IMG/VR virus record: IMGVR_UViG_3300046535_000406
Coordinates: 45,498 to 109,497 of that record
DNA from: a virus
DNA length: 64,000 nt
Direction: 5' to 3' (one strand)
Positions 14,101 through 43,169 of this stretch are shown here, one piece after another; the stretch's first letter is position 1, and each line of letters starts with the position of its first letter. The notes beneath the pieces are model-generated. The model was not told where the DNA came from and ran no database searches. It saw only the letters and a program-made list of their open reading frames with translations. Position numbers and translations under genes: made by a program.

Positions 14101-15283
14101 CTGCGCGCTCGCCCGCCTGCGCGAGGGAGTGGAAGTCGTTCAGGGCACCGCCGACCAGCAGCGCCCGGAGCCACTTCACCGTGTCCGGCTGTGCGAGGTT
14201 CCACGGGTTCAGGACGTTCTTCACGATCCAGTTCAGCAGGCCGCCCTTGGCGTGGAGCGCGGCATCTGCCGCCACCATGCTGTCGGTGATGTCGCCTTGG
14301 TTGTCGGCGCTCAGCTGGTTCGCGTTGCGAGCACCAGCGGCCCTGCGCGCTGCCCGCATGGCACGGAGAGCTTGGGCGTGCAGGATGGCGTTGACTCGGG
14401 CAGCGGCCTCCTGCGGCGTGATCCTCCCGGATTGGAGCAGCCGGGTGACCACGGCCAGCTGGTTGCGCACGGCGGCCTGAGCACTGGCGCTGATCTTGGC
14501 GATGGCGGCCAGCAGCTTCCTGACTTGGGCCTGCTGCACCAGCGTCTGGTTGGCCTGTGCCAGCTTCGCTCGCTCAGCCGCGATGCGATCGAGGATGACC
14601 GGGATTGACGTGTTCTCGGAGTCGGCCACCGCCCGAGCGAAGCCCTTGCGCATCACGTCGTCCATGCGCACGGCGACCGACTGCAACAGCAGGGCCTCCA
14701 TGGCCGGGGCGTCCTTGGCCTGCTTGGGGTCCTTGCCGTTGGTGGTGGTGATCAGGCGCCCGATCAGGTCGCCCACGGAGCCGACCGGGATGACCGTCTC
14801 GGCGGGTGCCAGCCCGGCGGCCATGAGCGTGCGCTGAATGTCCTGCTGGTCCTGCGTCGAGAGCCGTGACAGGTTGCCCAGCGATCGCTTGCCGACGGTG
14901 TAGGCGTTGCTCGCCTGACGCAGGTAGGCCGCGCTGAGCGCCGCCGTGAACTGGGTGCTGGTCAGCGTGCCAGCCTGAAACTGCTCGATCAGCAGCAGCG
15001 CCGACTCCACGAACTGGCGCACTGCCCGGGACAGGCGCTCATCGGCGCCGGGGTTGCGCTGGGCCGGTCCCCAGCCGATCACCGGCAGCCCTGCGCTCAG
15101 CGCGTAGGCGATCGCCTGAAGGTGGTTGATGTCCCGGTCCGAGGCGACGATGCCCGTCGCGTCCTCTTGGATGGCAACGTCGTACTGGGGGTCGTACCAG
15201 AGAGGATCACTGGCGCTTCGCAGCGCCTCGGTGATCTGTTCCAGCAGCGCCTCGGTGAGGTCCCGGTCAGTCTCCGCGACCAT
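1..15283 (-). CDS. Giant (>=5,094 aa, runs off window) MuF-like minor head protein / polyvalent effector: MuF-type Cys motif, 2 zincins, HipA-like kinase, ART-like, NUDIX, ~29 KOW/SH3-like repeats
   Basis: ATG at 15283 overlaps the portal 3' end, with GAGG upstream. Manual translation stays in one frame to base 2 (MVAETDRDLTEAL...FHQGDWVTV). The ORF track lists no stop-terminated minus ORF in this frame. WWTLGDADHCDDC...HTQCGLNCKCRFEY at 13805-13960 resembles the MuF Cys motif. Confidence 0.88.
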   Translation of the reverse strand, partial: MVAETDRDLTEALLEQITEALRSASDPLWYDPQYDVAIQEDATGIVASDRDINHLQAIAYALSAGLPVIGWGPAQRNPGADERLSRAVRQFVESALLLIEQFQAGTLTSTQFTAALSAAYLRQASNAYTVGKRSLGNLSRLSTQDQQDIQRTLMAAGLAPAETVIPVGSVGDLIGRLITTTNGKDPKQAKDAPAMEALLLQSVAVRMDDVMRKGFARAVADSENTSIPVILDRIAAERAKLAQANQTLVQQAQVRKLLAAIAKISASAQAAVRNQLAVVTRLLQSGRITPQEAAARVNAILHAQALRAMRAARRAAGARNANQLSADNQGDITDSMVAADAALHAKGGLLNWIVKNVLNPWNLAQPDTVKWLRALLVGGALNDFHSLAQAGERAAFRVGDNIAPVTGATPTAQTVADVANVQSAIGQDHVFSPTPMGQIIQVWWTLGDADHCDDCIELSDMSPYSYDALMSMGLFPGSGHTQCGLNCKCRFEYDVPDTVCGDPLAGISDFAESMVTEGPINLVWIKEADACGTPIPVASLLGDLPDYGPSQQPVADQNAFTWDTDVASQIVVDAPALALPEELAWLKHPPDLHAPYIRDGIREPGVGPVLVQKFALGDNTYSAVYQEDAKNLRFITGAMTGASSHTFEPEMTVAAIRWAAQSAAERGLSLQFDNRLVNQGLADFLNGLGAVSAELPLAQRIPDTIAAGASIFTEHPILPGPQLTWMREMPEMPSFRALAAEPHVSNANAIVQTAFEPSPEHPMADAMALFPGMKNLAGEAFSSAQWDMLRAKAELFDQLGIDRSLNSALSVIESSDGVGYAGRAFSDGRINLEPEMGLAGKITVSNTFGDAWAHEYGHLVSNRLSQRLGADRWNTFKADFRGDNLLKLKSYADTSDEEFWAEAFTAMTRPDYIPGTLAGDTEAWSLMREGGVWHTPEITFPVTKFGAFPTEQVLVDPSKWGTGGLLPGWKWGSADKLGKGTTPRVLLKDPTGQEFLLKPYGVSEEVAGSRVTTLFGLDAPPVARIAFGTGDNPWYAWQALVPRTAQSYWVRAPDAATLARVLGHDEERQLFGHGLVDYLIHNADGHGGNYLYDSGRVWAIDKGYGFDRLGSGLTPSLTDFYERADASMFGRIDHSPDLLLRLTPQDVATTLDRFDGVTDQQLLNAVGDALTTDAAKADLLSRKHNLRQSVEDLFADRTTIADHPSAAWKAWLDDGGTFPYTPPADLGATVSEVTNVSELVARMEARYPGTDWSGLLEVPFDTGKVLAKRMDMLFSRFGTIPSFRGVALRTYAPGKGTIAEVARIDPNVPGSKVFLNRAMFTDSTALQKAFLRDKANVPFSVGGQIATNADEWASDVVTHEMGHEWLGMNLHSRLGADRYAPVRQELEPWLKSTLWPALKTTHISKYARSNQHELWAETFAGAIEGMNQPETKQLAAIFDKFYPAKPADPLLGFSPQDLPSVNLTDVMKPKDTGFFKNNTPQAVRDAVLALPEAEREGATKLIRNMATLWKKDVSVVPTDWQVWLIKGSTFEAPTEVLPAAATLWDKKLTPQWSKPEVPLPPAPTAAEFAPEGSAGIVTQLLNPKDEWWLEPNLKPIADAAEWNAVDTGAINKSLRAGEHVADQSVDGTMVKGKDLLDYYDRLSTQAETTAPGILYRGQSLKAGALGKVGDSYVDKAIPFATSSGNKAYNFAIPGGVVQRMHVPKGFRLSAGEATYQVQLPRNLRWRIVRVTDGKELGLAENVSVVDLVPDTGVVPGYQYTGVPFKSFTAPPKPDTPFDGLTFKIDEKAPVLEPGTTVEPIPVEGIAPLNTPPVDWTGHVPEEPPLPEGAVADWQLKDMREAADKAWLRWEAVQSGEAKYAITWSQAESDAAKKAGLFEQKIGSQYYAAKSKADLDALDKAVKGGLDTNSDAFWKDTLGYSQKQLDTIDAYDVAKKGTHSLRAGVVLVEPDGRMWIISPRNRWAGYENTFAKGGVDLNETTAQAAVREAREEMGFSVELDKYLGDFTATDNGSITRYYVAHRTGGGPAWAKTIKETYSVRLGTPSEVRPVLLRYDKPDSRDTKVLDSYLEQAGLPPVAPPITEPPARLLGMSPDDVSGGSPFLHEQLGYDPQIAEASAGVWTPTSMPTGLMKVELPGGPDGTSSVFFRDDEAAKTRRWVLTAFKNDSGVLVAAADPAMAQLRANAMLAMVTNLPKGWDLSIEGSMGFGKADFALLGIPGEVPGFGKTLLIGNGDAVKVAKIMADPTALSADAPTLTLTPAVTDTLAAKLGPADPTIAVGQIVGTNTPTHFATHGVEAPADPFFETYGVAKPAWDTSLFVSEGKAPDEVLSSVHWKIGTTDQPINLFYPNAASSFVRMGVPEWKVTGIETRRAILLKEILRQADKGMEVEVTVSTTETAKLADLFTVLGSKSEGGSWRLDAPQLQLLRKATDQNVSITSLLPPPGITTAAMHPAAQAKSLDQTLGHVVTATPNKLSAQGTTGIGEKWGFDQHEAYNFVNGTGTGIPTPDGPDLKSHPQKQVWTTSKGGDVEFYWDTSPNGNLRLNQVITGENVSEPDVAAALVGQLQYFAGVMQNPALYGVNHLAVRIDDAVMNVLGDKTKQMLTAAGLKPSSVLGGWILSRPNTIGLVHSLLNDLTDVAAVASVAPAAFAIGDTVLHATYGIGTVIDAVAGGTFYVKFPSVTSYFLADQLKPIVKAITSLKPGDMVHTLDNKPALIASISADGQKALVKIGFGEQTFSIADLSLAHQWQIGDLVNYLGNEGSITKIEPDILFLKTTADGKLFATEPWNANLTFIGSQPAWEVGDTLVNGAGVKGAVTFVHADGFIDVHWATGTSPSIHVDPNATTLGVPLTKTGSLGAPTAPAAPSAAGFRVGDKVQSGGLSGTKGVIAAVFPDAGKVTVTWDSGITSTAFDPTHPNVMLKHVEPSATFKVGDHVANMWDATGTITNVADGKVGITWDISPGAGAGLLIDPTTVGLKHVPDVGVTQPPLKVGDTVIEQISGKGQMVTVQTIDPVGTLALVELPDGSTTWMAVSSLVKPGFSSPAWAVGTATPVAAVTTFVQGDVVKTAFGVGKVNKVLPGDVIEVTLPSGAYKSFTVGELSSVAPQVGDAVIHPTLGHATITKIDTGITPVQIQVKAVGSEAWAWANPDNVVKVGDKLQHGAIVQTIDANQVIAVTGGAKFTSPVSEVQKDLKLGKYPGLTPGTGAVTTAAEPWKVGDQALWQPPGFAHPEQVTIQAVSPSGLITVKGAAANAFPVAPTELARVPAATTEPFKVGDAVLVTKGAAFSGQVGSITHVGLLSSGETYYDVALPGAPYVSFKAEELAPAPGTAPGVMAPGGVPAGITVGAKVEIEGLTGTVTQIAPNGILTIAVDTGGSTTAYGIGDAKVVMVQHGPPLRIDGKVHISGTGVSSLDGQDGIISAIHPNGTYAVTKLDGATAQDVSAKNLHPFLTWNVGDTALLPSGTKVEIKSITGLDFYGATVQYADGHIDKWPVWALVKPAGAAPTPVVPTNPFKIGDHVTTPSGSSGVVSEITPPQGVSGGMIVMKLPDGTSLVTSPATLKMTRPPGAVGGLFQKLGVSKAEFDKGWQTQLATGESAYQVKPVGGAIGGLYASMKKNLQGDLVLYSIGGTTLGSDASYLAALSGIASFPLDPLKIAPKNLIVPTSFLNAMPTLSDLMKQAGAVESQYGWLTLTAAQATDLATKLSTDTQLITVGSLAAGGTKVAGSIDFAGWATEDIAQMAAAIGAIPDTLALGGGALSLSWKAGKFDIGGTLDYPPNATKPMRILNLTSPIAMQNTTFMVVTQYAGESLSYGQKLIYEDQALSVIDEHWKNMLLDHYNGSLDLSGSQTRIILPYEDAQQLAKDIKQASGIASPQALPVPPQTGVLTGATLAVPNPVTVGAYDPLTASLYTVQYEKSVSGHSLLSGANTTMKQTHYGTGAIDGGTAEWRRIGNRLELWQTTGDQLGVFAAQMRKFNDYMDATPSLTHLNLKGPILEPGPVRTWLEEAGWDPSQKLLKSDVDQIVSDLDSEVGAATNAVPVTLAFGSVPGYDPAVVDNFAMHWGVETNEKAAYLSGANTSVKHVVWGGGSSLDYRRLGNRVELLKLTAPSEHIADNVAFAFIQHAADLFDKTPSLYRLRIDSDAFLATSLSMRDTLKAYGGVLSKTNDMAFKPEDVQAIRDKLVADGQAPTIVTVAPPPVAPTFSTLGTIEGYDPQAIALASIPDIEQTIHPVHLAGTANKALKETIYGDGNQALKVQWRRIGQRIEVSSAEGDYTPTLLLAHMKRMAEAMETTPGIEYTVVRASIVGGMPLDLRNLFEVAYGTAATKGDIKMGRLDAEALLKDLKADEVKAKAAPGIAPTIQSAPKPVPATTVASSYAAGDHIVWGKGLNGFVTSVDHNGKLSVTSVSGTTFKLKPEDVTPYTATTPNVVFPGSKAGGYNLGDQVQWGKPSLGTPMQTGTVTQISQSGELTITTQSGAVVHKAATNPNLSKVAPAVSFAKGVIEPPPTTLAVGDKVKFVGSGPPTYEVMAVKPNGLIDVKDSDGNLWADMNGEHAVKVGVVPAFTPIPPEGLKVGDWALKPDGKYAKVMHTFDNGNVQLSIGNTFAPGDIVPAGSVTKVAEPTKQAAFSIGDQVVLPNGKVDVIASIDGVDEYHVAGAPGLPFFGKDMLLAKPAEPAGLKVGDIVDHMNGNSAYKGGTVVAINDVSKTANVKWPGFGGAQGLESPQVNLKLVGAPPPVLAKVGDEIVVKPGGGDATGDVATYGGQMGTVNYVSLNGQMMDVTMLDGSTGTFAQNEVIVSAKAGTLTPAAVPSPLTPKAGDTVSVNGKTGTVMGTHGIVNGEMTWGVEFPGEPVWGYFPTSQLSAAVGPKVGGKVTVKAIGGAFDGETGTITAISPDGLDIEVILNDEHATQVTFEPSELENANPAPFRIGEHVNYGGQNLTVTKLFPVTGNVQAMGVDGTPFVLVPESVNKGWITATTPAPKFAVGDKVLTNDYGIGTIAQVNSATVEVSFDPLTSPNAPSSKIYNPAKLTPKPQIKVGDSVLTYGGDEGVVNYLSPDGLTAHVTTMTANLTQETKDLTLVKVQPGFHQGDWVTV
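2250..3600 (-). repeat. Three copies of an unrecognised ~145-aa domain
   Basis: Each copy has YDP...AN..[MVL]K...[YW]G.G...[WY]RR[IL]G[NQ]R[LVI]E...TP[SG][LI]. Confidence 0.75.
4600..7350 (-). repeat. Block A: ~16 tandem KOW/SH3-like protein repeats
   Basis: Recurrent [FWL]-x-[VI]-G-D-x-V units of about 55 aa (FAIGDTV, WQIGDLV, FRVGDKV, FKVGDHV, FKIGDHV etc.). Confidence 0.75.
9090..9470 (-). other. NUDIX hydrolase domain of giant protein
   Basis: Intact Nudix box GGVDLNETTAQAAVREAREEMGF at about 9302-9370. Confidence 0.9.
10040..10500 (-). other. VIP2/C3-like ADP-ribosyltransferase-fold domain (catalytic Glu apparently substituted)
   Basis: INKSLR...LYRG...FATSS...EATYQVQLPRNLRWRI. Confidence 0.7.
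10980..11560 (-). other. Zincin metallopeptidase domain 2 of giant protein
   Basis: VVTHEMGH...ISKYARSNQHELWAETF. Confidence 0.82.
11730..12380 (-). other. HipA/PI3-4-kinase-like domain of giant protein
   Basis: KLGKGTTP...FLLKP...EVAGS...DYLIHNADGHGGNYL...AIDKG. Confidence 0.8.
12560..12900 (-). other. Zincin metallopeptidase domain 1 of giant protein
   Basis: WAHEYGH...SYADTSDEEFWAEAF. Confidence 0.8.
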
Positions 15284-17342
15284 ACGTCGCCTCGGCAGCA
15301 TCTGCGGCCTGCCGTGCAATCTCTACCAGACGGTGGACGCGGACCCGCTCGTCCGGCGGAGCCCACGACTCCTGAATGGGAGGCGCGGTGTCCTGCTTGA
15401 CTCCGGCCTTCTGTGCCGCCGTCGGCATCATGCCCGGCACCGGCGAGAGCTTCGTCGGGAAGCCGCCCTGAGCCGCCAGTGGCGTCAACAGCGACTGCGG
15501 GTCGATCGGCTGTGGGCCGGTGGCGCCCTTCATCATGCCCTCGGGCAGCGGCGGGAACAGGCGGTCCATCAGCTGGTCCACGTCCTCGATTTCGAGCGCG
15601 ACCATGGCGATGGACAGGACCCACTTGCCAGCCTCGGGGTTCTGAAGCGGCAGCATGTCGTAGAGCGCCTTCAGGGCCGTGAAGTAGGCCGCAAGGTCCT
15701 TCTTGATGATCGGCGGGAAGACGACGCTCACGTACCAGTCGATCGGCTTGCTCGGCCCCGGGTCTTGGTCCGACAGGGCCGTGAAGACCATCGGCTGGAC
15801 GGCAGGCGGCGGCGGCGGCACGAACGGCTGGGGCGGGCCACCCGGCGCGGCGGGGTCGGCAGGCTTGGACGGATCGGCAGTCGCCTTGGCAGGGTCGGCG
15901 CCGTTCACCTTGGCGCTGTCGCCCTTCACGTGAATGTTGATGTCGCCCTCGTGCAGTTGCACCGGCGAGCCTGCGCGACCGGCAGGCGGTCCACCTGCGC
16001 CGACGGGTGCCGTGGTCGGACCCGGGTTCAGCTGAGGCGGTCCAGCTGGCTGTGCGGACGAGGTGTCAAGCACCTGCTGCGCCGTCATCGACCGCTCGCT
16101 GTATTTCGTGGAGTCGTCGCGTGGGCCGAGCTTGCCAGCGTCGTGAGCCGTCTCCAACGCGAAGGTGACGATGTCCGACATGATGTCGCCCAGCCACTTC
16201 TGCCACGACTCGTACATCTTCAGGAGCGGAAGCTCCATGGCGGTCGCGGTCGCGAGGTTGGCGTTGGCCTCGTCGCCGAAGTAGTGGTTCGGGATGCCGC
16301 CCATGCCCGAGCCGCCCATCATGCGGAGGATGCGCTCGTCGGCCAGCGCGTTCGTGCCGCCGGTGTCGTTCTTCATCCATTCGAGGGACGAGTAGTCGTT
16401 CTCCACGATGGTCGAGCCCGGCGCCGGAGCAGGGTTGGTGTCGTAGCCGGTGGCGCTCACCTGCATTGACGACTGAAGCCGGGCGACCTCGGCGGCCACA
16501 TCCTGAGCCGTGCTGTTCTTGCGCTTCTTCTTCCACGCGAACGTGGCAGCTGCGTCAGTGATCGTGGAGCGGTTCTCCATGAACCGCTTGTGCGCGTTGA
16601 CCCAGTCGAGCGCGGCCTCTATCTCGGACTCGCCCATCTTCGACTTGCCACGGCGGCAGAGCATGACCAGCCCGTCCTCGACCGCCTTGGGCGCGGTCTG
16701 GCCCTTGGGGTCCAGAGGAGCGTCGTTGCGCCACTCGCGATACCAGATGAAGTCGTCTGCCGTGGTGGCGGAGTAGGAGCCAACGTTGAAGTCGTAGCTG
16801 CCGCCCAGCTTGCGCACCTTCACCCAGAGCGGGATGCGCCAGTTCTCGGGATCGGTGACCACGTCCTCGATCAGCAGCGAGTCGATCGAGCCAAGCTCGA
16901 CCTTGCCTTCATCGGTGTCGGGGAACATGACCAGCACTTGCAGGCCGTCGGTGAAGGCACCCTTCAGGAAGTCGGACTGGGCCATGTAGCCGAAGAACGT
17001 CTGCTGGTTCACCGGGTTCTGGACAAGCTCGTCAACGATCTTCGCGACACGGGTCTTGTTGGCGGCGGAGAGAGTCACGCCGCGCCCGATGGTGTAGTTC
17101 ACGAGCAGGTTGGACGCCTGCTTCACGAGCGGGCTGCGCCGGGCTGCGCGTCGCGCACGGCGGATCGTCGTGATCCGCTCGTCTCGGGTCAGGTACGTCT
17201 CGTCGCCGGAACGGTCGTACGAGAGGTTCGTCCAGTTGGCGTCTTCGAGAGCGCGCTCGACCGTCAACAGGGCTTCGCGAATGCTGACCGGCTTGGGTCC
17301 AGCGAAGGCGGGAGCGCCGTTCGGCTGCACGGTGAGTCCCAT
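15267..17342 (-). CDS. Phage portal protein with Pro-rich insertions
   Basis: RRSPLVKQASNLLVNYTIGRG...GIPNHYFGDEANANLATATAMELP pattern; sits immediately before the MuF-like gene; start moved to MGLTVQ. Confidence 0.8.
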   Translation of the reverse strand: MGLTVQPNGAPAFAGPKPVSIREALLTVERALEDANWTNLSYDRSGDETYLTRDERITTIRRARRAARRSPLVKQASNLLVNYTIGRGVTLSAANKTRVAKIVDELVQNPVNQQTFFGYMAQSDFLKGAFTDGLQVLVMFPDTDEGKVELGSIDSLLIEDVVTDPENWRIPLWVKVRKLGGSYDFNVGSYSATTADDFIWYREWRNDAPLDPKGQTAPKAVEDGLVMLCRRGKSKMGESEIEAALDWVNAHKRFMENRSTITDAAATFAWKKKRKNSTAQDVAAEVARLQSSMQVSATGYDTNPAPAPGSTIVENDYSSLEWMKNDTGGTNALADERILRMMGGSGMGGIPNHYFGDEANANLATATAMELPLLKMYESWQKWLGDIMSDIVTFALETAHDAGKLGPRDDSTKYSERSMTAQQVLDTSSAQPAGPPQLNPGPTTAPVGAGGPPAGRAGSPVQLHEGDINIHVKGDSAKVNGADPAKATADPSKPADPAAPGGPPQPFVPPPPPAVQPMVFTALSDQDPGPSKPIDWYVSVVFPPIIKKDLAAYFTALKALYDMLPLQNPEAGKWVLSIAMVALEIEDVDQLMDRLFPPLPEGMMKGATGPQPIDPQSLLTPLAAQGGFPTKLSPVPGMMPTAAQKAGVKQDTAPPIQESWAPPDERVRVHRLVEIARQAADAAEATYGRGD

Positions 17343-17485
17343 CACCAGCACCTGAAGTGCGCCCCATCCTGAACGTCGAAGCTCGGCACGCCCGGATGGG
17401 GCAGAACGCCGCTCCTCAAGAACCGGGGTTGCCGGTCGCGGGGAAAGCCTATCACGGGCGTCCAGACTGCTGGTACTGTGCGCGC

Positions 17486-17713
17486 ATGACCCGCCCCCAT
17501 CCACGCCAAGCGGACGCGCTTGCGCTCGCCTCGGGCATCGCCATCGTCTCCGTGGCCCTCATTGCCGTCGCAGACATCGTCGCCCACGGATCACTCGAAC
17601 CGGCGGTGATGACGCTCGTGGCCTCCACGATCGCGCCTCTGACGCCCGCCCTGATCATCCGCTACGGGATCAACCCGAACCGTAGCGGGCACGAGCAGAG
17701 CCCGCCCCAGTGA
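17486..17713 (+). CDS. Small 2-TM membrane protein (holin-like?)
   Basis: Two hydrophobic segments; GTGA-coupled to the next gene. Confidence 0.5.
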   Translation: MTRPHPRQADALALASGIAIVSVALIAVADIVAHGSLEPAVMTLVASTIAPLTPALIIRYGINPNRSGHEQSPPQ

Positions 17714-25056: not shown

Positions 25057-26232
25057 TCAGCCTTCCTGTTCGGTGATGACGTTGGAGTGAGCCTTGGTGT
25101 TCTCGACCAGCGGCTCGTTGCGGTCCCGGGACTGCCAGCCCTCGCGGAACCACGCCGAGTGCTCGTCGTCCGGGCCGGGCGTGTCGCCCAGTGATTGGGT
25201 GGCGTAGTGCCACGGGTTGCCGCACCCGATGACCGGGATCGGCTTGGAGTCCTTCCAGAACACCGGCCAGCCATCGGCCAGCCGGGCCATGATCCCGTCA
25301 CCACAGACAGGGCAGACCTCGACCGGGCTGCCGCCACCAGCAGGCTGAGCGGCCATGTCCCGGAGCGCGTCTCGCAGCGCGGCGTAGGTGAGCGCGTCGG
25401 CCTCGGACGGACGGACGGGTTCCTCGAAGGACATGCGGATGTCCGCCTCCACCTCGACCTCGTCGTCCGACGCTGGGGCCAGCGGCTGCCAGATCGTGGG
25501 CGGATGCGGCTGCCCGTACCACGGGTTGTGTGACGTGTCGTCCTCGCTGAGCGTGTCCTCGACAGAGGCCGTCAGGTGGTTCTGCCGCCACTCCTCCTCG
25601 GCGATGGCGCGGTAGTCGGCAGTCGAATACAGGTCGGCGAGCACCGCTGCCCGGGCGACGTAATACTCGGCCATGTAGCGGTTCTGGTCCTCGATGTCAT
25701 CGGCCTGCTCCAACGCACGGATGGCAGCGAGGCGATAGCTCTCCGGATCGGGGCGGGGATCGGTCATGGGAGCCTCCTTGTGCTCAGGTGGGGTGGCTTG
25801 GATGGCAAACTCCCCGTGGGAGTGGTCATCGAACCAGCTGTCAATCCGCTTCTTGCGGGCCATCAGAGCCCAGAAGTCCTCGAATGCGCCCTCTGGATTG
25901 TTGGGAACCGCGCTTATGGCGCGATCATCGATGTAGACCTCGGCTGGCACCTTGTCCGCCGTGATCAGGTCGAACGGCAACTCCCACTTGTTCAGCCAGT
26001 CGCGGACCCACTTGCGCTCGCGCTTCACGTCCCCCGGGGAGATGGAGGTCCGGCTGCACCGCGTGGTGTGGATCACGATGCGGTAGCCCTTGGCGCGAAG
26101 GTCGTCAAGGAAGGTGGTGGCGCCCGAGAGTGGTGTCGCCCCCATGTGGTAGAGCGATGTGTTCGGGTAGATCACGCCGTCGAAGTCAACGGCCACCACT
26201 CCGGTGCCGGTGTGCAGGTTGGGCCAACTCAC
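25057..26232 (-). CDS. HAD-superfamily hydrolase fused to unknown C-terminal domains
   Basis: VAVDFDGVI...HTTR...K.PAEVYIDDRA. Confidence 0.75.
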   Translation of the reverse strand: MSWPNLHTGTGVVAVDFDGVIYPNTSLYHMGATPLSGATTFLDDLRAKGYRIVIHTTRCSRTSISPGDVKRERKWVRDWLNKWELPFDLITADKVPAEVYIDDRAISAVPNNPEGAFEDFWALMARKKRIDSWFDDHSHGEFAIQATPPEHKEAPMTDPRPDPESYRLAAIRALEQADDIEDQNRYMAEYYVARAAVLADLYSTADYRAIAEEEWRQNHLTASVEDTLSEDDTSHNPWYGQPHPPTIWQPLAPASDDEVEVEADIRMSFEEPVRPSEADALTYAALRDALRDMAAQPAGGGSPVEVCPVCGDGIMARLADGWPVFWKDSKPIPVIGCGNPWHYATQSLGDTPGPDDEHSAWFREGWQSRDRNEPLVENTKAHSNVITEQEG

Positions 26233-28503: not shown

Positions 28504-29952
28504 TCAGCCTCGCAGGATGATGCCGTCCACTTCGGCGATCTGGGACTCGTGGAGCGCCTTGCGGGCGATGCCCTCATTGGCGGCCCACTGGTCGGCGTTG
28601 CGCAGCAGGGCGACAGCTGGCATGTCCACCCGGAGCACCGGCACCCGGTAGTCGGCAGCCGTGCTCATGTCGTGCGCGATCGAGGCGGCCCATTGGTGGT
28701 GGCCGTCGATCACATAGTTGTCGGCGGAGATGAGCACCGGCTTCATCGGCTGGCCGCTGCCGTGCCCTTCGAGCGAGTCCAAGAAGCCAGCCGTCTTGGC
28801 GACATTGACTTCATTCTGGGAAGGCTTCAGGTCCTGCGGTCTGATCCGATCGCTGGTCACAGCGATGCCATCGTCGCGCAGCCCGTTCAGGTAGTCGTTC
28901 ACCTTGGTCGCCGGTATCTGGGGCATCTCGTCACGTGGGATGCCCAGCGACGGGCCGAACGTCTCGTTGCCGTCCACCCTCAGCTTCGTCAAGTCGAGCG
29001 GAGCGCCATCGTGGGACTGGGACGCCTGAAGTGTGGGCTTCAGGTCGGACCGGGCGACGTTGGCGTCCTTCCCGGCAGCCAAACGCTGGATGGCCTCGGA
29101 CGGTGAGTGGGCCGCGTGTCCCCCGGCACCAGCTGATCCGCCCAGCCACGCGCCATAGAAGTGGCCGTCTTCCGACTCCTTGACCGGCACGAAGCTCACC
29201 GTCCGGTGGTCCATGGGTCCGCCGTGCACCGCCGTGTAACCCCGGGTCGGGTAGCCGTTCCGCCCGGCTGCCGCCATGACGGCGTCGATGAACGCCTTGG
29301 CCCCACCCTCGTAGCCGCCTGAGCCGTACAGCATCCCGTCCGCATAGGCGTCGGCAATGTCTTCGCTGAGCGATCCGCCGGTGATCGAGCCGTTGCCCTG
29401 CACGGTGAACAGGCCCGGGACGTTCCAGTGGTTCTCTCCGACCTTGTATTGGTCCAGCACCGACTTCACGTCCGCGTAGGCAACACTCGTTCGGTGCCCG
29501 GCCTCGTGGTACATCAGGTTCATCAGCCGGTTGTTGCGCTCCTCCGGCGTCTCGCTGATCCGCCCGCCGGTGCCCAGCACGTTCGACCCGAGGGTGATGT
29601 TGCGATCCGTGTTGTAGCCCGCATGGCCCACGATGGCGCCTCCGCCGGGATGGCCCTCGTCGTGTGCCGCCGCAGCGTTGATCGAGCCGAGACTGCCCGT
29701 GATCACGATGCCCGGGGCCTCACCGTTCTGAAGCTGCTGGTCGGTCATCGCCCACGGCTTGGTCTGGGGCCAGCCGTTCACGTCCTTCCTGAGCGCCTGA
29801 GAGGCCGGGAAGTCAGCGAAGCGGTCCTTGGTCGCCGGGTGACCACCGGCTGAGGCGCTACCGCCCGTCCAAGCGCCGTAGAAGTGATTGTCGTCGTCCG
29901 ACTCCCGGTAGCGACCCATCGCCGCCTGAATGTCGTCGCGAATGCCGCTCAC
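28504..29952 (-). CDS. Tagged modular protein: zincin (HEAGH) module + ParB/Srx-like module
   Basis: YHEAGH...SEDIADAY; LKPSQ...VLISADNYVIDGHHQWAA; two HFYGAW tags. Confidence 0.75.
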   Translation of the reverse strand: MSGIRDDIQAAMGRYRESDDDNHFYGAWTGGSASAGGHPATKDRFADFPASQALRKDVNGWPQTKPWAMTDQQLQNGEAPGIVITGSLGSINAAAAHDEGHPGGGAIVGHAGYNTDRNITLGSNVLGTGGRISETPEERNNRLMNLMYHEAGHRTSVAYADVKSVLDQYKVGENHWNVPGLFTVQGNGSITGGSLSEDIADAYADGMLYGSGGYEGGAKAFIDAVMAAAGRNGYPTRGYTAVHGGPMDHRTVSFVPVKESEDGHFYGAWLGGSAGAGGHAAHSPSEAIQRLAAGKDANVARSDLKPTLQASQSHDGAPLDLTKLRVDGNETFGPSLGIPRDEMPQIPATKVNDYLNGLRDDGIAVTSDRIRPQDLKPSQNEVNVAKTAGFLDSLEGHGSGQPMKPVLISADNYVIDGHHQWAASIAHDMSTAADYRVPVLRVDMPAVALLRNADQWAANEGIARKALHESQIAEVDGIILRG

Positions 29953-30146
29953 GCGATCGCCTTGTTGACTTCGTCCATGGACACCCGGTCGATGTCGGCG
30001 CCGGTCACCAGCAACTCGATCAGCCGGGGATCAGGGACCCACTTCTTGGACGCCCAGTCCCAACGCTCAGCCGTGGAGCCGTCATCGGCTCGCCGGTAGG
30101 CGACCTCGACCTTGCCGTGGTTGTCGTGGATCAGGTAGCCGATCAT
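29949..30146 (-). CDS. 65-aa putative immunity/antitoxin
   Basis: ATGA-coupled directly behind the RelA/SpoT-like toxin; ERWDW...W...DIDRVSMDEVNKAIA. Confidence 0.6.
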   Translation of the reverse strand: MIGYLIHDNHGKVEVAYRRADDGSTAERWDWASKKWVPDPRLIELLVTGADIDRVSMDEVNKAIA

Positions 30147-31273
30147 GGGTTGCGCAACTGCACGCCACTGGGCGGCCACCCGCCGGGGACCGGCACGGTG
30201 TTCTGGTTGGCCTCCATCTGAAGCCACAGAGACGCCCTTTCGTCAGGGCTTGACGAGGTCCGCCACGCCTCGTAGAGCACGTGCTGCGAGCGCGCCGTCG
30301 CGACGGACTCCGGCGTGTGGAACTGCAACTCGAAGCGAATGTCGGTGCCCGGCTTCTCGAAGACGGCGTTGACGCCCTGATAGACCGCCGGTGGTGGCTC
30401 ATGGTCCCAGAAGTTCTTGGGCGCCTTGCCGCCCAGTGGGGCGTAGCCCTTCCGAAGCAGGTCGGTGTAGGCGCTCTGGAAGGTGTCCCGGTACGTGGAG
30501 TCGTCAGCCACCATCGTGTAGCGGAGGCTGTCGTTGATCCCGCCCGCCGCCTCCGGGATGGTGAGGTTCTTGTCCCGGGCGTCAGCGGCGATCTTCTCGG
30601 CCAGTCGGTCCTCGCCCTTCAGCCGGGCGTCAAGGCCCTGCATGGTCGCTCCGACCTTGCCGGAGATGGTCTGAAGGTCGGCTGTTACCTGCGGCTCGTT
30701 CTTCACCGCCGCCAAGCGCATCGCGTGGGCGGCTGCCGCCACCGTCGTCATGCCAGCTGGGATGGGATGGCCGCCCTTCCCGCCCCACCACGCGCCGTAG
30801 TAATGGTCGTCGTCGCTGGCCTCGTGAAGGGGCTTCCACTGCCAGTCCCACGCCTTGCCAGCATCGGTCAGGGCCGGTGTCGCCTTGGCTGCCTTGTCCG
30901 CTTCCGCCTTGGCTGCCTTGGTGAGCATCGCCGACACGCTGTTCGCGACATCGGGTGCCCAGATGCCTTGCGAGTGCGCGGTCATGTACCAGATGTCACC
31001 GACACGATTGAACGTGGCTGACGCCTTGCCCTTCGTGATCGTGACTGCCTGCCCGTCCGGGTGGACCTCCACCTTGTCCGGGTGAGCGGCCAGCCGCTTC
31101 TGCTCGTCGTGCCCAGCGTGCGCCGACAACTCGTGACCCATCGCCTCCGGGTGTCCGCCGGACGATGCCTTGCCGCCTTCCCACGCTCCGTAGAAGTGAT
31201 CGCCGCCCGACTCGACCAGACGGTGCGTGTCCATCTCGGTGGCGATCGCCTCGCGGAGGCTGGGCTCCCTCAC
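30143..31273 (-). CDS. Tagged modular protein ending in RelA/SpoT-like (small alarmone synthetase/toxSAS-type) domain
   Basis: RLKGEDRLAEKI...DSLRYT...YQGVN...FELQFHT...HVLYEAWR; GTGA start at 31273. Confidence 0.8.
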   Translation of the reverse strand: MREPSLREAIATEMDTHRLVESGGDHFYGAWEGGKASSGGHPEAMGHELSAHAGHDEQKRLAAHPDKVEVHPDGQAVTITKGKASATFNRVGDIWYMTAHSQGIWAPDVANSVSAMLTKAAKAEADKAAKATPALTDAGKAWDWQWKPLHEASDDDHYYGAWWGGKGGHPIPAGMTTVAAAAHAMRLAAVKNEPQVTADLQTISGKVGATMQGLDARLKGEDRLAEKIAADARDKNLTIPEAAGGINDSLRYTMVADDSTYRDTFQSAYTDLLRKGYAPLGGKAPKNFWDHEPPPAVYQGVNAVFEKPGTDIRFELQFHTPESVATARSQHVLYEAWRTSSSPDERASLWLQMEANQNTVPVPGGWPPSGVQLRNP

Positions 31274-31482
31274 GACACGAGCCTTGACTGGCGTGGGGCG
31301 ATCAGCGTCGGGTTGCAGCAGCAGGCGTAGGCGTTCATCACCGCACAGATCGGCTGGTGCATGACGACGAAGTTGCCCTGATCGTGGTTCTCGCCGGTCC
31401 GGGGCCAGACGCTGAGCAGAGCGTCCAGCGTGGAGTCGTACTCGCCCGCCGCCGGGAGCACATCGATCGACGTGTGTTCCAC
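31270..31482 (-). CDS. Hypothetical Cys/His protein
   Basis: Coupled to the downstream gene. Confidence 0.45.
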   Translation of the reverse strand: MEHTSIDVLPAAGEYDSTLDALLSVWPRTGENHDQGNFVVMHQPICAVMNAYACCCNPTLIAPRQSRLVS

Positions 31483-31506: not shown

Positions 31507-32550
31507 CTAGAGCGCCAGCCCGCGTTGCAGCCAGTGGAGCCGGTCCTCGGCGATCAGCACGTACTCGTGCTCGCGCTCGATGCCGATCCAGCGGTAGCCC
31601 TCCAACTCGGCGGCCACGCCGGTCGTCCCTGACCCGAGGAAGGGATCGAGGACCACGCCGTCCCGGGGCGTCACGAGCCGGACCAGATGGCGCATCAGGT
31701 CCACCGGCTTGCACGCCGGGTGAGTGTTCTGGCGCATGGTCTTGCGCTCGTAGACCTTCTGGTCGGCGTCGCCCCAGTTGACTGCCGTGACCTTCGAGCT
31801 TCCCGTGCTCGCGACCGGCTGCGCTTCGCGGTCGGACAGGATCGGCTCCCGATCGGGTCCGGCTTTGGGCACGAGGAACATACGGGAGTAGTCGCCTCGC
31901 AGGACAGGGTCGGTGAGCAGCAGGTTCGCGGGCCAGCGGTCCCCGACCCGTGCCCCCTCGATGTTCAGCGCGCCGGTGCCGGAGCGGAGCACATTGGCGG
32001 CGATCGAGCCGGGGTGTGGCTTGCGCGCCATGACGATCGGCTCCCACGCTGGCTTCAGCGCGGTGCCCCAGCCTTGCCACTTCTGGGCGTCAGATGTGAT
32101 CGCCACATCTGAGAGCACGTCGAAGTCCAGCTTCGAGCGGCCCTGATCGCCCTGCTCGACGTTCGTTGACGCCATTCCGGGTGCGCGCATGGTGCCGACC
32201 ACCTCGCGCTGTGCGCCTTGGAGCCGGTCGATGTCCTTGGAGATGTTCCGGGACTTGGGGAAGCCCTGAGCGTAGGCCCAGCAGAGGGTGTCGCGAAGCT
32301 CCCAGCCAGCGTCCTCGATCGCCACCATCATCCGGTGGAAGGTGCGCGTGCCGCCGAAGGCGAGCAGGTAGGCTCCCGGCTTGGCGACCCTCAGCATCGC
32401 CGACCACGTGGCCGGGTCGAAGGCGATGCCCGTGCTGTCCCACGCCTTGCCCATGAAGCCAAGCTCGTAGGGAGGGTCTGTGGCGATTGCGTCAATCGAG
32501 TCCGCTTCCATGTCCGCCATGGCCGCGATGCAATCCGCCTCGATGATCAC
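31507..32550 (-). CDS. DNA N6-adenine/N4-cytosine methyltransferase (beta class)
   Basis: TDPPY...HPACKP...VLDPFLGSGTT; GTGA start. Confidence 0.92.
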   Translation of the reverse strand: MIIEADCIAAMADMEADSIDAIATDPPYELGFMGKAWDSTGIAFDPATWSAMLRVAKPGAYLLAFGGTRTFHRMMVAIEDAGWELRDTLCWAYAQGFPKSRNISKDIDRLQGAQREVVGTMRAPGMASTNVEQGDQGRSKLDFDVLSDVAITSDAQKWQGWGTALKPAWEPIVMARKPHPGSIAANVLRSGTGALNIEGARVGDRWPANLLLTDPVLRGDYSRMFLVPKAGPDREPILSDREAQPVASTGSSKVTAVNWGDADQKVYERKTMRQNTHPACKPVDLMRHLVRLVTPRDGVVLDPFLGSGTTGVAAELEGYRWIGIEREHEYVLIAEDRLHWLQRGLAL

Positions 32551-34863
32551 GGGAGTGTCCGGTAGACCAGCGCCCAGACGACCGCCGTCAGCACGACAAC
32601 GAGGACCAAGCTGGCAGCGCCAACGGTGTTGTCGTGTGGCAGGCCGAGCAGGTTGATAGCCGTCGCCACGACGGCGCCCACGCCCATCAGGACGAGCCCA
32701 GCGCACCATCCCCAGAGGTCACGGGTCATTCGGTCGTCCCCAGACCCGGCAGAGGCTGCTCGGACTCAGGCGTCGGGATCGGATCGTCGGCGTGCCTCCA
32801 CGGGATCACCGGGCGCAGGAACGATCCTGCCAGCCGCCGACCGCATCGGATCGTCCGCTTCTCGTTCAGGAATGTCTCGCAGAACCAGTCGCCCTTCTCG
32901 TGGCCGCCGGGCGCGTAGTGCGGGTCGATCACGTGCTCGGTCAGGGCAGCACCTCGATCGAGGAACGGTCCACGTCGTACTGACCGTTGATGCCGTCGAG
33001 CATGATCAGGGCGCGGATGCGCTTCGCCCCGGCCCCAGAGCCGTCGTAGACAGCGAGCACGGTCCCCATGACCCCGGGCTTGGCGACCCGCTCCGTCGCC
33101 CACTGGCGATGGCCGAGCGGGATCGCCCGGGCTACGCGGCAGCGCGGCCCGGGAGGCGGCTTGGGGAACGCAACGACATCGCCCACCTCAGACGATCAGG
33201 CCCGTCTTCCGCTTGGGCTTCAGGCCGAAGTAGCGCACGTCGTACTGGCAGTGGAAGCAGCGGGCGACGTTGCGCTCCACCGCCGGGTTGGCGTCGTTCG
33301 GGTCCATGCCCTTGGGCACGGAGGCGTACCACTGTTCGAGCGCCCCGGGCTGGGCCACGTTGGTGTGGGTGACAGGGTCAATCTCGACCTGCTCGATCGT
33401 CGGTGCCCAGATCAGGTAAGCGTCGCAGCACTTGCAGTAGAGCGGAGGACCCGACAGATCGAGGCTGTTCTGCTGGAAGATGGCGGCGGCCTCGCCCAGC
33501 CGTTCACGTGATCCACGGCAGTAGCCGGTGCACGGAGGGATGATCGGGCGCTGGTCGTACTCAGCTGAGACGGGCATCAGTCGTTGTCTCCCATGGGCAG
33601 GTCGCCTTCCTCCCAGATCGCGAGAGGCACCTCGGCGAGAATGCGGGACTCCTCGGGCTCGGCGCCCTCGGCGATCAGCTTCGCCAGTAGCTCGTGACCG
33701 GCGTCAAGCGCCTTCTGAAGCATGTCGTCGGAGACTGGGACACCGGGCCTCACGAGCGCGCCGGTGCGCCGGTCGATCACCGGCATCTTCTCCATCGGGT
33801 CGCCCAGATACTCCCTGATCTGCTTCAGGCTGTAGCCGTCGCGCTGCATCCGGGCGGCGGCCAAGATCGTGTCCTGAGCCGACACCTTGGTCAGCTTGCC
33901 GGGCTCACCGATGCGGTCGATCGAGAGCAGACCCATGGGCTCCTGACGAATGTGCTCGCCGGACACGCTGATCGTGCCGTCGGCGTTCTTCACGAGCCTC
34001 GGGCCACCGCGCCCGGGGATGATCAGTCGGTCCATGCGCCGTTCTCCTTGGCTGCGTCAACGAGGACGTGCAGCTGCTTCTGACCGGCTGGCCCGATCAG
34101 GCCCCACATCCGGTTGGCCTCCATCAGGTGGGCCGAGCAGGGCGGGCTGACGGCGGGCACACGGTGGGCCGCGACGCACAGGCGCCTCGCAAGCTCGACG
34201 TTGGTGATCTGGCCGCTCATATCATCCTCTCCATTGCCTTGGGGTCGAACACGACCAGCTGGTCAGGCGGGCACACGGGGTTCACCTCGATCAGGTCCAG
34301 CAGGCCGCCCGTCAAGCCGCGCTCCCGGAGGCTCTCAATGGTCGCAGCCGTGGCGTAGACATGAGCGCCATTGCGGATGGCCTCTCGGGCGCGCTCCCAG
34401 CGGGCTTCCTCGTCGGGGCTCATCCGGCCACCAGCATCTTCTGGCCGTCCCCGGCCACCCAGTCGGCCATCGTCTGGCCGTTGGCGAGCATCAGGTAGGG
34501 CATGAACTCGCGCTCGACCGTCGTCTCGCCGCCGTCGGCAAACTCCATCTTGGCCTTGATGAGCAGGACGATCGCCCGCCACCTTCGGCGCCACTCGGCA
34601 TCGAGCGCGACCTCCTGATCAGCTTGGTGACGCCAGCCCCAGTCGGTCTTACCGGCGGAGAGGAACGACTCGCGGGCGTCATCCATGGACGGTCGGTCGA
34701 TGCTGAACTTGTAGAGCTTGCCGCCAATCTCGAACTGAAGGAAGTCGCCGGTCGGCTTGGTGCCCCACGCCATCGTGGACACGCCGTGCTTCGCGAGGAT
34801 GCCCGTAATCTCGCCCCGGCTGTCTGTGGCGCTGACCTTGGTGCCGTAGGCGTATCGAGCCAT
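32547..34863 (-). other. Run of small coupled hypothetical ORFs (32547, 32726, 32941, 33188, 33577, 34023, 34217, 34420)
   Basis: Coupled ORFs with typical codon usage. Confidence 0.55.
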
Positions 34864-41278: not shown

Positions 41279-41524
41279 TTAGACCTCCAACCTGCCAAGC
41301 AACTCTGGGGGCAGGCTTCTCTGCCAATAATCGACGTTGTTCAGCGGGATGACAACCTCACCGGGCAGCGACCGCCACGCCACGTTGTTGGTGTTGGGCA
41401 CCTCACCGGCGATCTGGGCCGCCGCGAGGATGAAGCCGTTCTCGCCCACCTCGCGCAGGACGCCACGGATAGTCGTGTCGGTCTTCAGGGTCACGATCAC
41501 GACCGCCAACGGTTCAGTAGGCAT
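41279..41524 (-). CDS. Small Sm/LSm-like fold protein next to terminase
   Basis: VTLKTDTTIRGVL...GEVVIPLNNVDYWQ. Confidence 0.5.
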   Translation of the reverse strand: MPTEPLAVVIVTLKTDTTIRGVLREVGENGFILAAAQIAGEVPNTNNVAWRSLPGEVVIPLNNVDYWQRSLPPELLGRLEV

Positions 41525-43169
41525 TGCCGATCCTCACTCGCTCGTACTCCTCATCGAGGTCTTCGGCCATCACCACGTTGGTTTCACCCGGCTTCAAGCC
41601 GTTCACCTCGATCATGCGGATGCCTCGCTCGGCGAGCCACCACGCCATCACGGTGTCGTCGTGCTCGCCGACGGACTGCAACTTGCCGTCAGCGTAGCCG
41701 AAGGCGTTGGCCTCGGTGCGCCACGTGCTGGCAAACTCCGCCGACTCGGCGTCGCCGGACGGGATCATCCAGAGGTTGTTGGCGAGGATCACCTTCAGCG
41801 ACGGGACGCCCTCGATCAGGGACTGCTTCTCGATCCCGGTGGTGTGCCCGAACACCCGGCTGGCCGTCTCGGCGTACTTCATCAGGTGCTGGGCCAGCCA
41901 CTTCTGGAAGGCGTTCTGCTCGATGATCAGGACCTCGGGCCAGAAGTCCTTGCACACCTGCCGGACCATGGCGACCTGCTCGTCAAACGTCAGCCCGCGC
42001 AGGCGGCAGGCCCACAGCAGGCGCCGTTTCCCGGTCACCCGGTTGTAGCTCACCATCCAGACGACGGTGTAGTCGGCTCCGGCTGTCTCCGACACAGCCA
42101 AGTCCATGCCGCCCACGACCGCCTCGTTGGGCTCTCGATCGGCAGGCAGGTAGGGCCGGACGAAGTTCAGGCCCTCTCCGCCCATCAGAGCCCGGCCTGT
42201 CAACTCCCACGGGAAGGTGGAAGTGGCGTCGTCGCGAGGGTCCATCTGGTACTCGCGGCTGAACAGGACCGGGTCTGTCTTCTGAAGGTCCAGCAGGTAC
42301 TTCAGCGAGTAGCGTTCCTCCCAGAGCGCCTGCCCGGTGTCGAGGTTGGCGGCCCGGGACTTGACCCACGTCCAGCCCGGCTTCCCGCGCAGCCGGTGGA
42401 GTGCGTCCTCGTAGTGCTGGGGCGTGCCGACCACGATCAGCTGGCCCGTGGCGCCCGCCATCGGCATCAGGGTCGAGACGATGTACGACCAGACGCGGCC
42501 TCGCTGAAGCGGCGTGCGCCCGTTCTTCTCCGTCACGATGTCGTCGGCGATGATCACCTGCGGGTGCGGGCCTCGGATGGACGAGCCGATCGACTTGGGC
42601 TGAAGCGTCGCGTGGTTGCGCAGCCGGAGCTTGGTTCTGGACCACACGTCCTTGATGACCGACTGCGGCAGGCCCTTCAGGCGGATCGGGAGGATGTCCT
42701 CGAAGAACTGCTCGTTGTCCAGCATCAGCTGCTTGACTCGCTCGAACCGCTCCTTGGCGATGTCGATGTTCGAGGTGAAATACATCACTTCGAGGTCGCC
42801 CTCGGGCCAGCTGGGGATCAGGAACCCGTCCGGGCCTCGGTTGTGCCGCCACATGCGCCACGCGATGTAGGCGTAGCAGACGAAGGTCTTGCCGTGGTCG
42901 CGGGCCGCCATGAGGCACAGCAGCCGCTCGTCCTGAAGGAGGTTGCACCACTCCCGGTTGTGCCAGCGGCTGATCAGGTAGGCGCCCTTGTCGTCCTTCA
43001 GCTTCGACAGGAAGTAGGCGAACGAGCCCCACAGAAGCGCGGACTCGGTGACCTCGTAGCCCTGACCGACCAGCCGGACGGCGGCTTCCTCGCGGGCTGC
43101 CGCCGCTTGGATCGCTGCGCCGATCCGGTTGTCAGCCGCGCTCGATGGTGACCAGTCCTGAGCGAGCAT
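41514..43169 (-). CDS. terL: Terminase large subunit
   Basis: Walker A ARDHGKT; RGPHPQVIIADD; GTP; nuclease GMDLA...ADYT...IEQNAFQ...HDDTVMA. Confidence 0.93.
   Translation of the reverse strand: MLAQDWSPSSAADNRIGAAIQAAAAREEAAVRLVGQGYEVTESALLWGSFAYFLSKLKDDKGAYLISRWHNREWCNLLQDERLLCLMAARDHGKTFVCYAYIAWRMWRHNRGPDGFLIPSWPEGDLEVMYFTSNIDIAKERFERVKQLMLDNEQFFEDILPIRLKGLPQSVIKDVWSRTKLRLRNHATLQPKSIGSSIRGPHPQVIIADDIVTEKNGRTPLQRGRVWSYIVSTLMPMAGATGQLIVVGTPQHYEDALHRLRGKPGWTWVKSRAANLDTGQALWEERYSLKYLLDLQKTDPVLFSREYQMDPRDDATSTFPWELTGRALMGGEGLNFVRPYLPADREPNEAVVGGMDLAVSETAGADYTVVWMVSYNRVTGKRRLLWACRLRGLTFDEQVAMVRQVCKDFWPEVLIIEQNAFQKWLAQHLMKYAETASRVFGHTTGIEKQSLIEGVPSLKVILANNLWMIPSGDAESAEFASTWRTEANAFGYADGKLQSVGEHDDTVMAWWLAERGIRMIEVNGLKPGETNVVMAEDLDEEYERVRIGNAY

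Follow-up and report, generated by a model that had tools for sequence, protein, structure and literature searches.

What is the function of a short peptide that stands, in four copies, in front of four different modules of two phage proteins? The question is raised by genes A and B, which are encoded within the right-hand 64 kb of the 109,497-bp IMG/VR virus record IMGVR_UViG_3300046535_000406 from an uncultured soil phage (the whole stretch of 64,000 nucleotides is referred to as the window). With a probability of roughly 55%, we regard the repeated unit as a two-part maturation cassette for proteins that travel in the phage head and enter the host together with the DNA. Each unit would begin with a variable, acidic and amphipathic leader (or with the end of the preceding module), followed by a hydrophobic residue-Arg-Glu and then Ser, Ala or Gly; five to six residues later would come the core DDH[FY]YG[AP]WxGG-x4-GG[HGR]P, a flexible Gly/Ala-rich linker and the cargo. 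A gp21-like prohead serine protease would cut after the Glu within the procapsid, whereby leaders would be removed and the two-module proteins A and B split into four enzymes. Over the whole genome, eight proteins would give rise to 12 tagged products, with the core at the start of each. The disordered core, referred to here with its flanks as the tag, most likely serves as an address or docking element, which would either hold the cargo in the procapsid interior or ready it for exit.

The four tag copies described in the earlier note were recovered at their places, all on the minus strand, with H[FY]YGAW cores at 31181-31198, 30788-30805, 29869-29886 and 29146-29163. Also as described there, both proteins belong to one coupled operon, in which a 70-aa open reading frame (ORF), A, a 65-aa ORF and B are joined by GTGA, ATGA and GTGA, respectively, and the leaders of A and B both match [LI]R[ED]xIxxxMxxxR. 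Its assignment of a RelA/SpoT-like synthetase to A agrees with the match of the C-terminal domain to a solved small alarmone synthetase (8vx3_A, E 1.7e-14). The ParB/sulfiredoxin (Srx) module of B was likewise recovered: the AlphaFold2 model has a predicted local distance difference test (pLDDT) above 90 over the domain, and Foldseek matches to ParB-N (5k5d) and Srx (1xw4) reach probabilities of 0.98-1.00, with free serine kinase also among the matches. The zincin of B is read from the HEAGH motif and four BLAST relatives; a Pfam match is lacking, and the module is called zincin-like. A Pfam search with A and B returned nothing, even at E 10, and cargo A1 was without match in Pfam and PHROG searches. 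Neither protein contains a MuF (Phage_Mu_F) domain, their PHROG matches being confined to the toxin ends of MuF profiles. Cargo A2, of the RelA/SpoT homologue (RSH) type and one of 6 members of BLAST cluster 7, is similar to the C-terminal toxin parts of MuF proteins annotated as 'head morphogenesis' in phages of S. pneumoniae (tblastn E ~1e-21; phrog_7625), and cargo B2 matches 'structural proteins' of Vi1-like phages (tblastn). More generally, tagged cargo types recur as C-termini of MuF or structural proteins in cultured phages.

Tags are present beyond A and B. With a degenerate DNA pattern for H[FY]YGAW, 12 genomic copies were found, every one on the coding strand, and with its reversed control none; a tag profile detected the same number of own copies at E 3e-19 to 5e-10, with the next six-frame match at E 2.1. 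Eight of the 12 lie before the start of the window, in five genes whose cargo includes two Pfam ADP-ribosyltransferases and a zincin, and in the protease/scaffold gene (Table 1). The sequence logo has the core D-D-H-[F/P/Y]-Y-G-[A/P]-W-x-G-G-[S/K]-[K/A]-[A/S]-x-G-G-[G/H/R]-P, a Gly/Ala-rich stretch after it, and hydrophobic-Arg-Glu followed by Ala, Gly or Ser 5-6 residues before the His. Conservation resides in the protein, as had been claimed from the window copies: 245 of 579 identical-residue pairs among the 12 copies differ in codon, the invariant Gly positions use all four Gly codons, and the longest exact DNA run in common measures 20 nt. This scrambling of codons indicates selection on the peptide and not on the DNA.

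The earlier note would have counted membership in a known folded domain against its reading, but the tag lies outside such domains. No curated Pfam family covers the tag region in 18 own or related proteins or in 137 matches, and AlphaFold2 models the core as coil, with pLDDT 36-51 over most of it (B, aa 205-482). A coil core of low pLDDT followed by a Gly/Ala linker is, as far as the model goes, what would be expected of a docking peptide or a binding short linear motif. Resemblances to the WxG motif of type VII secretion, to AT-hooks (the GGRP ending occurs in only 23% of copies) and to double-glycine leaders were considered and set aside as resemblances only. A cargo family, phrog_17808, has an internal conserved PDHYLGGW.DG that resembles the DDH[FY]YGAWxGG of the core (L037:3092-4141, minus strand, aa 263-275; L009:3631-4437, aa 213-225). 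The likeness could be due to chance, or could hint at the origin or the shape (strand-turn) of the tag.

A lack of varied cargo elsewhere was likewise named in the earlier note as a refuting outcome; the tag is in fact linked to very varied cargo. A profile of 34 tag copies (alignment A2), searched against 1.84 billion representative proteins, matched 148 protein clusters at E <=1e-3, 50 at 1e-10 and 8 at 1e-30, the best at 4e-69. Local re-scoring located 206 tag copies in the 148 clusters, with up to six per protein. BLAST groups the 255 non-tag segments of 50 aa or more into 109 families, the largest being the ParB/Srx module (26 segments). Pfam recognises only part of the cargo: zeta toxin (10), GNAT (9, present also in multi-tag proteins), ADP-ribosyltransferase (4), ATLF-type zincin (4) and portal (3). 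One relative, P0025, shares the architecture of gene A. When the phage's own eight proteins are added to the 148 clusters, the first tag lies within 40 residues of the start in 107 of 156.

The tag is confined to a small number of related-type phages of high G+C content from soil and sediment. Scans with the exact pattern yielded one other viral contig (IMG/VR, 6.4 kb) and about a dozen metagenome contigs, which have 66-73% G+C and up to four copies each. An alignment-based scan of IMG/VR returned the same 6.4-kb contig only, and a search there for the variant HFYGPW returned none. Across 185,579 species genomes the pattern matched eight times, several of these outside open frames; the eight are ascribed to chance because all of them miss the GGxP half.

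A connection of the tag with the capsid is supported, at the level of sequence, by fusions to portal, MuF-like and protease/scaffold proteins. Two families of portal proteins have members that continue into tag and cargo. In P0044 (contig L009) and P0102, a Pfam Phage_portal domain is followed by linker, tag and cargo, while P0033 and P0042 consist of a portal 44% and 39% identical, respectively, to that of this phage, then two tags and cargo such as zeta toxin. The portal of this phage has, at aa 475-745, a Pro/Ala-rich C-terminal extension of ~270 aa without tag, in the place where P0033 and P0042 have their tags and cargo. In contig L029 the tag stands N-terminal of a MuF-like domain (weak Pfam match), and one copy is present in the protease/scaffold protein of this phage and in three of its homologues. 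Most protease/scaffold homologues are headed by an N-terminal domain of 85 aa (KDGLPRKAYAYAP...WKLP; phrog_19463; L037:13231-15486, aa 1-85), and the same domain precedes the first tag in ten otherwise different proteins (11 segments; P0020, P0030, P0060, P0075 etc.). From its distribution, this domain may be a second portable head-targeting module.

These fusions bear on the reading in which the tagged proteins are not virion cargo at all. The tag would then be the pre-toxin or recombination module of polymorphic toxins that leave the cell upon lysis or in some other way, and the peptide would mainly promote cassette exchange. The cargo repertoire is indeed that of polymorphic toxins, the exact DNA runs of up to 20 nt fit an exchange of cassettes, and the small conserved ORF after the RSH module resembles an immunity gene. 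The heavily randomised codons nevertheless point to selection on the peptide, the tag is fused to portal, MuF-like protein and prohead protease, and the motif was found on viral-type contigs only; we consider this reading very improbable. The small ORF itself, i.e. the 65-aa ORF between A and B, is a candidate immunity gene because a homologous small ORF (L023:1981-2241) occupies the same place after the RSH module in metagenome contig L023, which repeats the order of the window (tag-zincin-tag-RSH, small ORF, tag-ParB). Small immunity genes follow the MuF-fused RSH toxins as well (PMC10083569), and the product of the 65-aa ORF would, going by its position, protect against the alarmone-synthetase module.

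Cleavage after Glu had been proposed in the earlier note as part of a packaging and ejection signal. It is well motivated by a gp21-like protease and by h-R-E/[S/A/G] sites (h, hydrophobic), and we infer it, as we infer packaging, ejection and the role of the core, from the following observations. The model of the protease/scaffold protein (aa 340-660; AlphaFold2 pLDDT 81.6) has T4 gp21 as its best PDB match (5jbl, probability 1.00, E 7e-5, TM-score to target 0.54), followed by the HSV-1 protease (assemblin), and one His and one Ser are invariant in 42 homologues. The protein contains 11 h[RK]E[SAG] motifs where 0.6 are expected (~18-fold) and 21 hxE[SAG] motifs where 4.2 are expected; no other gene comes near it in this excess, and ~50 homologues contain 6-24 such motifs each, most of them 15-21. 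T4 gp21 cuts after L/I-x-E (PMC9026906), its relatives in phiKZ and SPN3US cut after Glu with Ser favoured at P1' (PMC10052503), and gp21 and its giant-phage relatives process packaged proteins at such short Glu motifs (PMC9026906, PMC10052503). Upstream of the tag cores, h-x-E-[SAGK] occurs within 10 residues in 192 of 218 (88%); P3 is Leu, Ile, Val, Phe or Met in more than 90% and P2 is Arg in 43-71%. The 84 N-terminal leaders have a median length of 20.5 aa, a hydrophobic P3, Arg at P2 in 71% and Glu at P1. Self-cleavage was set aside: the core has no Asn-Pro, Asp-Pro or recognised nucleophile pattern, and a separate protease site is present.

The same kind of site occurs in the major capsid protein of this phage (Phage_capsid_4, E 6e-39; L037:10763-11755, minus strand), whose 18-aa propeptide ends ELRE/SGSTSDF and resembles the leaders of B and other cargo genes. 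In its Mu gpT-like family, read from this gene and from 30 capsid genes in contigs L039-L117 (alignment A6), the junction h-R-E/[A/S]xTTSDFP follows propeptides of ~10-60 aa and its Glu is invariant. Judging from this alignment, the h-R-E junction is likely the maturation site for the whole capsid family. In 15 of the 218 cores, Lys/Arg-[SAG] takes the place of the Glu site. This subgroup includes both Phage_portal-type fusions and contig L009, whose protease is of the HK97 type (Peptidase_S78, E 3.7e-17), whereas both fusions to the portal type of this phage (P0033, P0042) keep Glu. In this small sample, P1 thus shifts with the type of protease, in the direction predicted for cleavage by the head protease of each phage.

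Cut sites of this kind could also mean that the ~30-residue unit is a processing separator only, a recognition or spacer element for proteolysis, with capsid entry provided by the leader, the fusion partner or the 'KDGLPRK...WKLP' domain and no address function in the core. Such a separator would fit the tags retained between portal and cargo and between the N-terminal domain and the body of the protease/scaffold protein, and it would fit the change of cut-site residues with protease type. However, the h-R-E sites in the scaffold and at the capsid junction come without core, and the protease therefore does not need it. Moreover, an invariant P' segment of 20 residues goes far beyond the reading by gp21-type enzymes, which use very few determinants (PMC9026906), and a first tag that close to the start, as in the 107 of 156 proteins, would free merely a short leader. 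A pure separator is, on balance, unlikely.

If the cassette carries an address, its receptor may be looked for in the shell. Encapsulin cargo-loading peptides are short, conserved and Gly-rich; they sit, mostly C-terminally, on a flexible linker of unrelated cargo, and an HK97-fold shell is their receptor. The tag is likewise a short conserved Gly-rich peptide on a flexible linker, and an HK97-fold shell is the candidate receptor here; its core has no sequence likeness to the encapsulin peptides. In a correspondingly narrower form of our proposal, the invariant core would be a cargo-loading peptide that docks cargo on the inner face of the HK97-fold capsid protein, while the Glu site would serve trimming and separation. 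A complex model of the capsid protein (alignment A6, 31 rows) with a leader-plus-tag peptide (A2) scored 0.32, the best of three controls 0.01, a result classed as weak support. Runs agree in at least 51% of contacts and the pLDDT of the partner is at least 49. Of the 80 solved complexes used for comparison, 58 reach the mark for such models, and of the 110 mismatched pairs, 2 do; these counts apply only roughly, since custom alignments were used. Scores of 0.60 or below comprise 7 of the 80 solved complexes and both passing mismatches, and a pass in this range is more often wrong unless the guess was likely beforehand. We take the model as a hint only, and the encapsulin-like version as unlikely.

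The core could, alternatively, act after ejection, in the infected cell or at exit and not in loading, for instance as a leader for threading through portal and tail, as a refolding or chaperone handle, or as a peptide binding a host factor or DNA. After the predicted cut, the core would be the new N-terminus of every module, followed by the flexible linker; its conservation despite differing portal and protease families would suit a generic partner, and it is kept in portal fusions. Yet no result points to a host or DNA partner, and none of the 185,579 species genomes scanned contains the motif, the eight matches there lacking its GGxP half. A role after ejection is improbable.

Several points weigh against a maturation cassette for head-carried proteins. 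The phage is uncultured, and no virion, cleavage product or ejection has been observed. Leader size ranges from 3 to 45 aa, too wide a spread for a uniform targeting signal. Portal fusions keep the core even though they need no targeting, and the core is nearly identical across phages with differing portal and protease families; the tag is missing from 80 IMG/VR loci whose protease and capsid genes are related to those of this phage, from which it follows that this head type does not require it. Taken together, these three observations make a lineage-specific receptor not obvious. Modules that lie N-terminal of a first internal tag would end untagged, and the covariation of Glu versus Lys/Arg with the protease rests on very few contigs of known context.

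The maturation cassette has its closest counterpart in the capsid-targeting sequence (CTS) of the T4 proteins IPI-III and Alt, which is removed by gp21 (PMC9026906, PMC3012670). Similar to T4, the phage has short N-terminal leaders ending in hydrophobic-x-Glu, encodes a protease of the gp21 fold, and has diverse, otherwise unrelated cargo genes, including ADP-ribosyltransferases like Alt. In contrast to T4, the invariant 20-residue core lies after the predicted cut, units also occur internally and make polyproteins, and the tags belong to a soil phage of high G+C content, whose capsid protein is like Mu gpT and which is not T4-like. The 84 leaders (3 to 45 aa, by inspection) are unlike MKTYQEFIAE, and have only the terminal h-x-E in common. 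The analogy with a T4-like packaging peptide drawn in the earlier note must be divided: the removable leader is the true counterpart of the T4 peptide, whereas the conserved core would stay on the mature protein. Since portal-tag-cargo fusions keep the core, 'packaging signal' is just one of several roles that it may have.

Polyvalent proteins (Iyer, Burroughs, Anand, de Souza, Aravind 2017, PMC5512222) resemble the tagged proteins in their repertoire of DdrB-like ParB, zincin metallopeptidase, ADP-ribosyltransferase (ART), GNAT and RSH domains, in their late or head gene context (other tagged genes of this phage lie among neck and capsid genes) and in the idea of delivery with the DNA. Both have two or more effector domains per polypeptide (unknown plus RSH in A, zincin-like plus ParB/Srx in B, up to six modules in relatives), and the same phage has a MuF-anchored example of 6715 aa. 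They differ in that autoprocessing by embedded peptidases is proposed for them in that paper, whereas a conserved tag and a prohead-protease-type site are present here, and in that many tagged proteins have a single cargo. In a term search of PMC5512222, 'linker' and 'YGAW' were absent, and the passages that the search returned describe no common junction or header peptide. Similarly, the RSH module of A is related to C-termini of pneumococcal phage MuF proteins (MuF polymorphic toxins, Jamet 2017, PMC5576092; Apk2, Ahmad 2023, PMC10083569) and is followed by a coupled ORF, of 65 aa; A and B differ from these toxins in having a tag in place of the MuF anchor. In phiKZ-like phages, many head-internal proteins, i.e. 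ejection or inner-body proteins (gp175/gp245; PMC10052503, PMC7411985), are likewise processed after Glu, Ser being the preferred P1' residue and propeptides being cut at several places, but no conserved tag has been reported on their mature N-termini. The known kind here is thus protease-processed head-internal cargo and polyvalent or MuF toxins. New with respect to the CTS, polyvalent and MuF descriptions would be a conserved 20-residue peptide that is predicted to be retained at the start of each mature module, together with its apparent use as a delimiter within polyproteins and as a junction behind portal, MuF-like and protease/scaffold proteins. Full-text literature searches for HFYGAW, and for the NPYHD of a second header peptide, found 0 papers.

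This second header (NPxHDxxGRF or PRDxxGKW) also stands after a protease-type site and before a Gly-rich linker and cargo, an equivalence of position only. An alignment of 27 NPYHD header tags (A5; contigs L119-L136; G-N-P-Y-H-D-x-x-G-R-F) gave no signal with the 34 HFYGAW tags of A2 in hhalign (probability 0.4%), and homology is thus unproven. In contig L009 (3631-4437, plus strand), however, RDERGDWIKGEKG and a Gly-rich stretch occupy the position of the tag at ~aa 125-150. It contains RDERGDWIKG, which resembles the PRDxxGKW header, and the cargo behind it is 40% identical to a HYYGAW-headed cargo of this genome. The HFYGAW and PRDxxGKW tags may therefore be interchangeable or even related. 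The NPYHD header contains N-P-x-H, a resemblance that recalls NPTH, the autocleavage motif of export switch proteins of the FlhB/EscU type.

The record is estimated by CheckV as 87% complete, has 67% G+C and encodes nearly all genes on the minus strand. Contigs from four other soil or rhizosphere runs are identical to this stretch and hence offer no population variation for testing selection, and none of 50,697 phage records matched the region in a megablast search. Genes A and B are placed between the terminase large subunit and the portal gene, the latter being followed by the giant MuF-type polyvalent ORF (Table 1). The giant protein combines a MuF-type Cys motif near its N-terminus with several HExxH zincins, parts resembling kinases and ARTs, a Nudix box and SH3/KOW-like repeats by the dozen; h[RK]E[SAG] sites occur in it 6 times against 1.9 expected. 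A scan with the tag profile found no tag in it, and it contains untagged zincin modules homologous to tagged ones. Docking of the tag on its SH3/KOW-like repeats was considered and set aside: a contig of the L009 type has tags between portal and protease and no giant gene in the 6.4 kb seen.

Table 1 Features of the phage genome (window positions unless prefixed C1 or L037)
Feature	Position	Strand	Evidence or remark
Gene A, 376 aa: leader, tag, unknown 85-aa module, tag, RelA/SpoT-type small alarmone synthetase	30143..31273	-	
Leader of A, 21 aa, ends L-V-E	31211..31273	-	predicted prohead-protease cut after Glu (31211/31210)
Core tag A1 (SGGDHFYGAWEGGKASSGGHP)	31148..31210	-	profile E 1.6e-16
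Cargo A1, small module of unknown fold, aa 48-132	30878..31132	-	single BLAST relative, in P0025
Internal tag A2, short variant (LHE/ASDDDHYYGAWWGGKGGHP)	30764..30829	-	predicted cut after Glu; profile E 5e-10
Cargo A2, RSH / small alarmone synthetase-like toxin module	30146..30748	-	
65-aa ORF between A and B, candidate immunity protein for RSH module	29949..30146	-	ATGA and GTGA coupling
Gene B, 482 aa: leader, tag, HExxH zincin-like module, tag, ParB/Srx module	28504..29952	-	
Leader of B, 17 aa, ends Y-R-E	29902..29952	-	predicted cut after Glu
Core tag B1 (SDDDNHFYGAWTGGSASAGGHP)	29836..29901	-	profile E 3.3e-19
Cargo B1, zincin-like module (HEAGH)	29224..29820	-	BLAST cluster 10, 5 members
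Internal tag B2 (VKE/SEDGHFYGAWLGGSAGAGGHA)	29113..29184	-	predicted cut after Glu; profile E 4.7e-13; low-pLDDT coil
Cargo B2, ParB/sulfiredoxin-fold module (DdrB-like)	28507..29097	-	phrog_2859, E 4e-26
70-aa ORF coupled upstream of A	31270..31482	-	no family match
Seven tag copies in five genes	C1:25092-29840		interleaved with neck/tail-completion gene, between capsid and tail genes
One tag copy in 751-aa protease/scaffold protein	C1:35231-37486 (L037:13231-15486)	-	just upstream of decoration and major capsid genes
Giant MuF-type polyvalent protein, 6715 aa	1..15319, running past window start (C1:40669-60816)	-	
Portal protein	15267..17504	-	phrog_10963, E 2e-34
Protein with phosphoheptose-isomerase / polynucleotide-kinase-like N-domain	25057-26232	-	PHROG name
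N6/N4 DNA methylase	31507-32709	-	Pfam E 1e-33
Terminase large subunit	41514..43169	-	phrog_38, E 2.6e-62
SbcC-like protein	50323-52185	-	

As a rule, it takes virion proteomics of a cultured phage to learn which proteins are carried in the head and injected. A cargo label in the sequence would make the injected arsenal of uncultured soil phages readable from metagenomes, an arsenal that here comprises ADP-ribosyltransferases, acetyltransferases, zeta-type kinases, an alarmone synthetase, ParB-like enzymes and zinc peptidases. Should the core prove to be a loading peptide, sequence alone would suffice to list the capsid cargo of this phage group, and chosen proteins could be packed into phage heads by means of the 20-residue tag, a tool like the CTS of T4. 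The tag also provides a testable handle on whether the toxins linked to MuF, portal and polyvalent proteins are packaged, on how they are freed and on what holds them in the procapsid.

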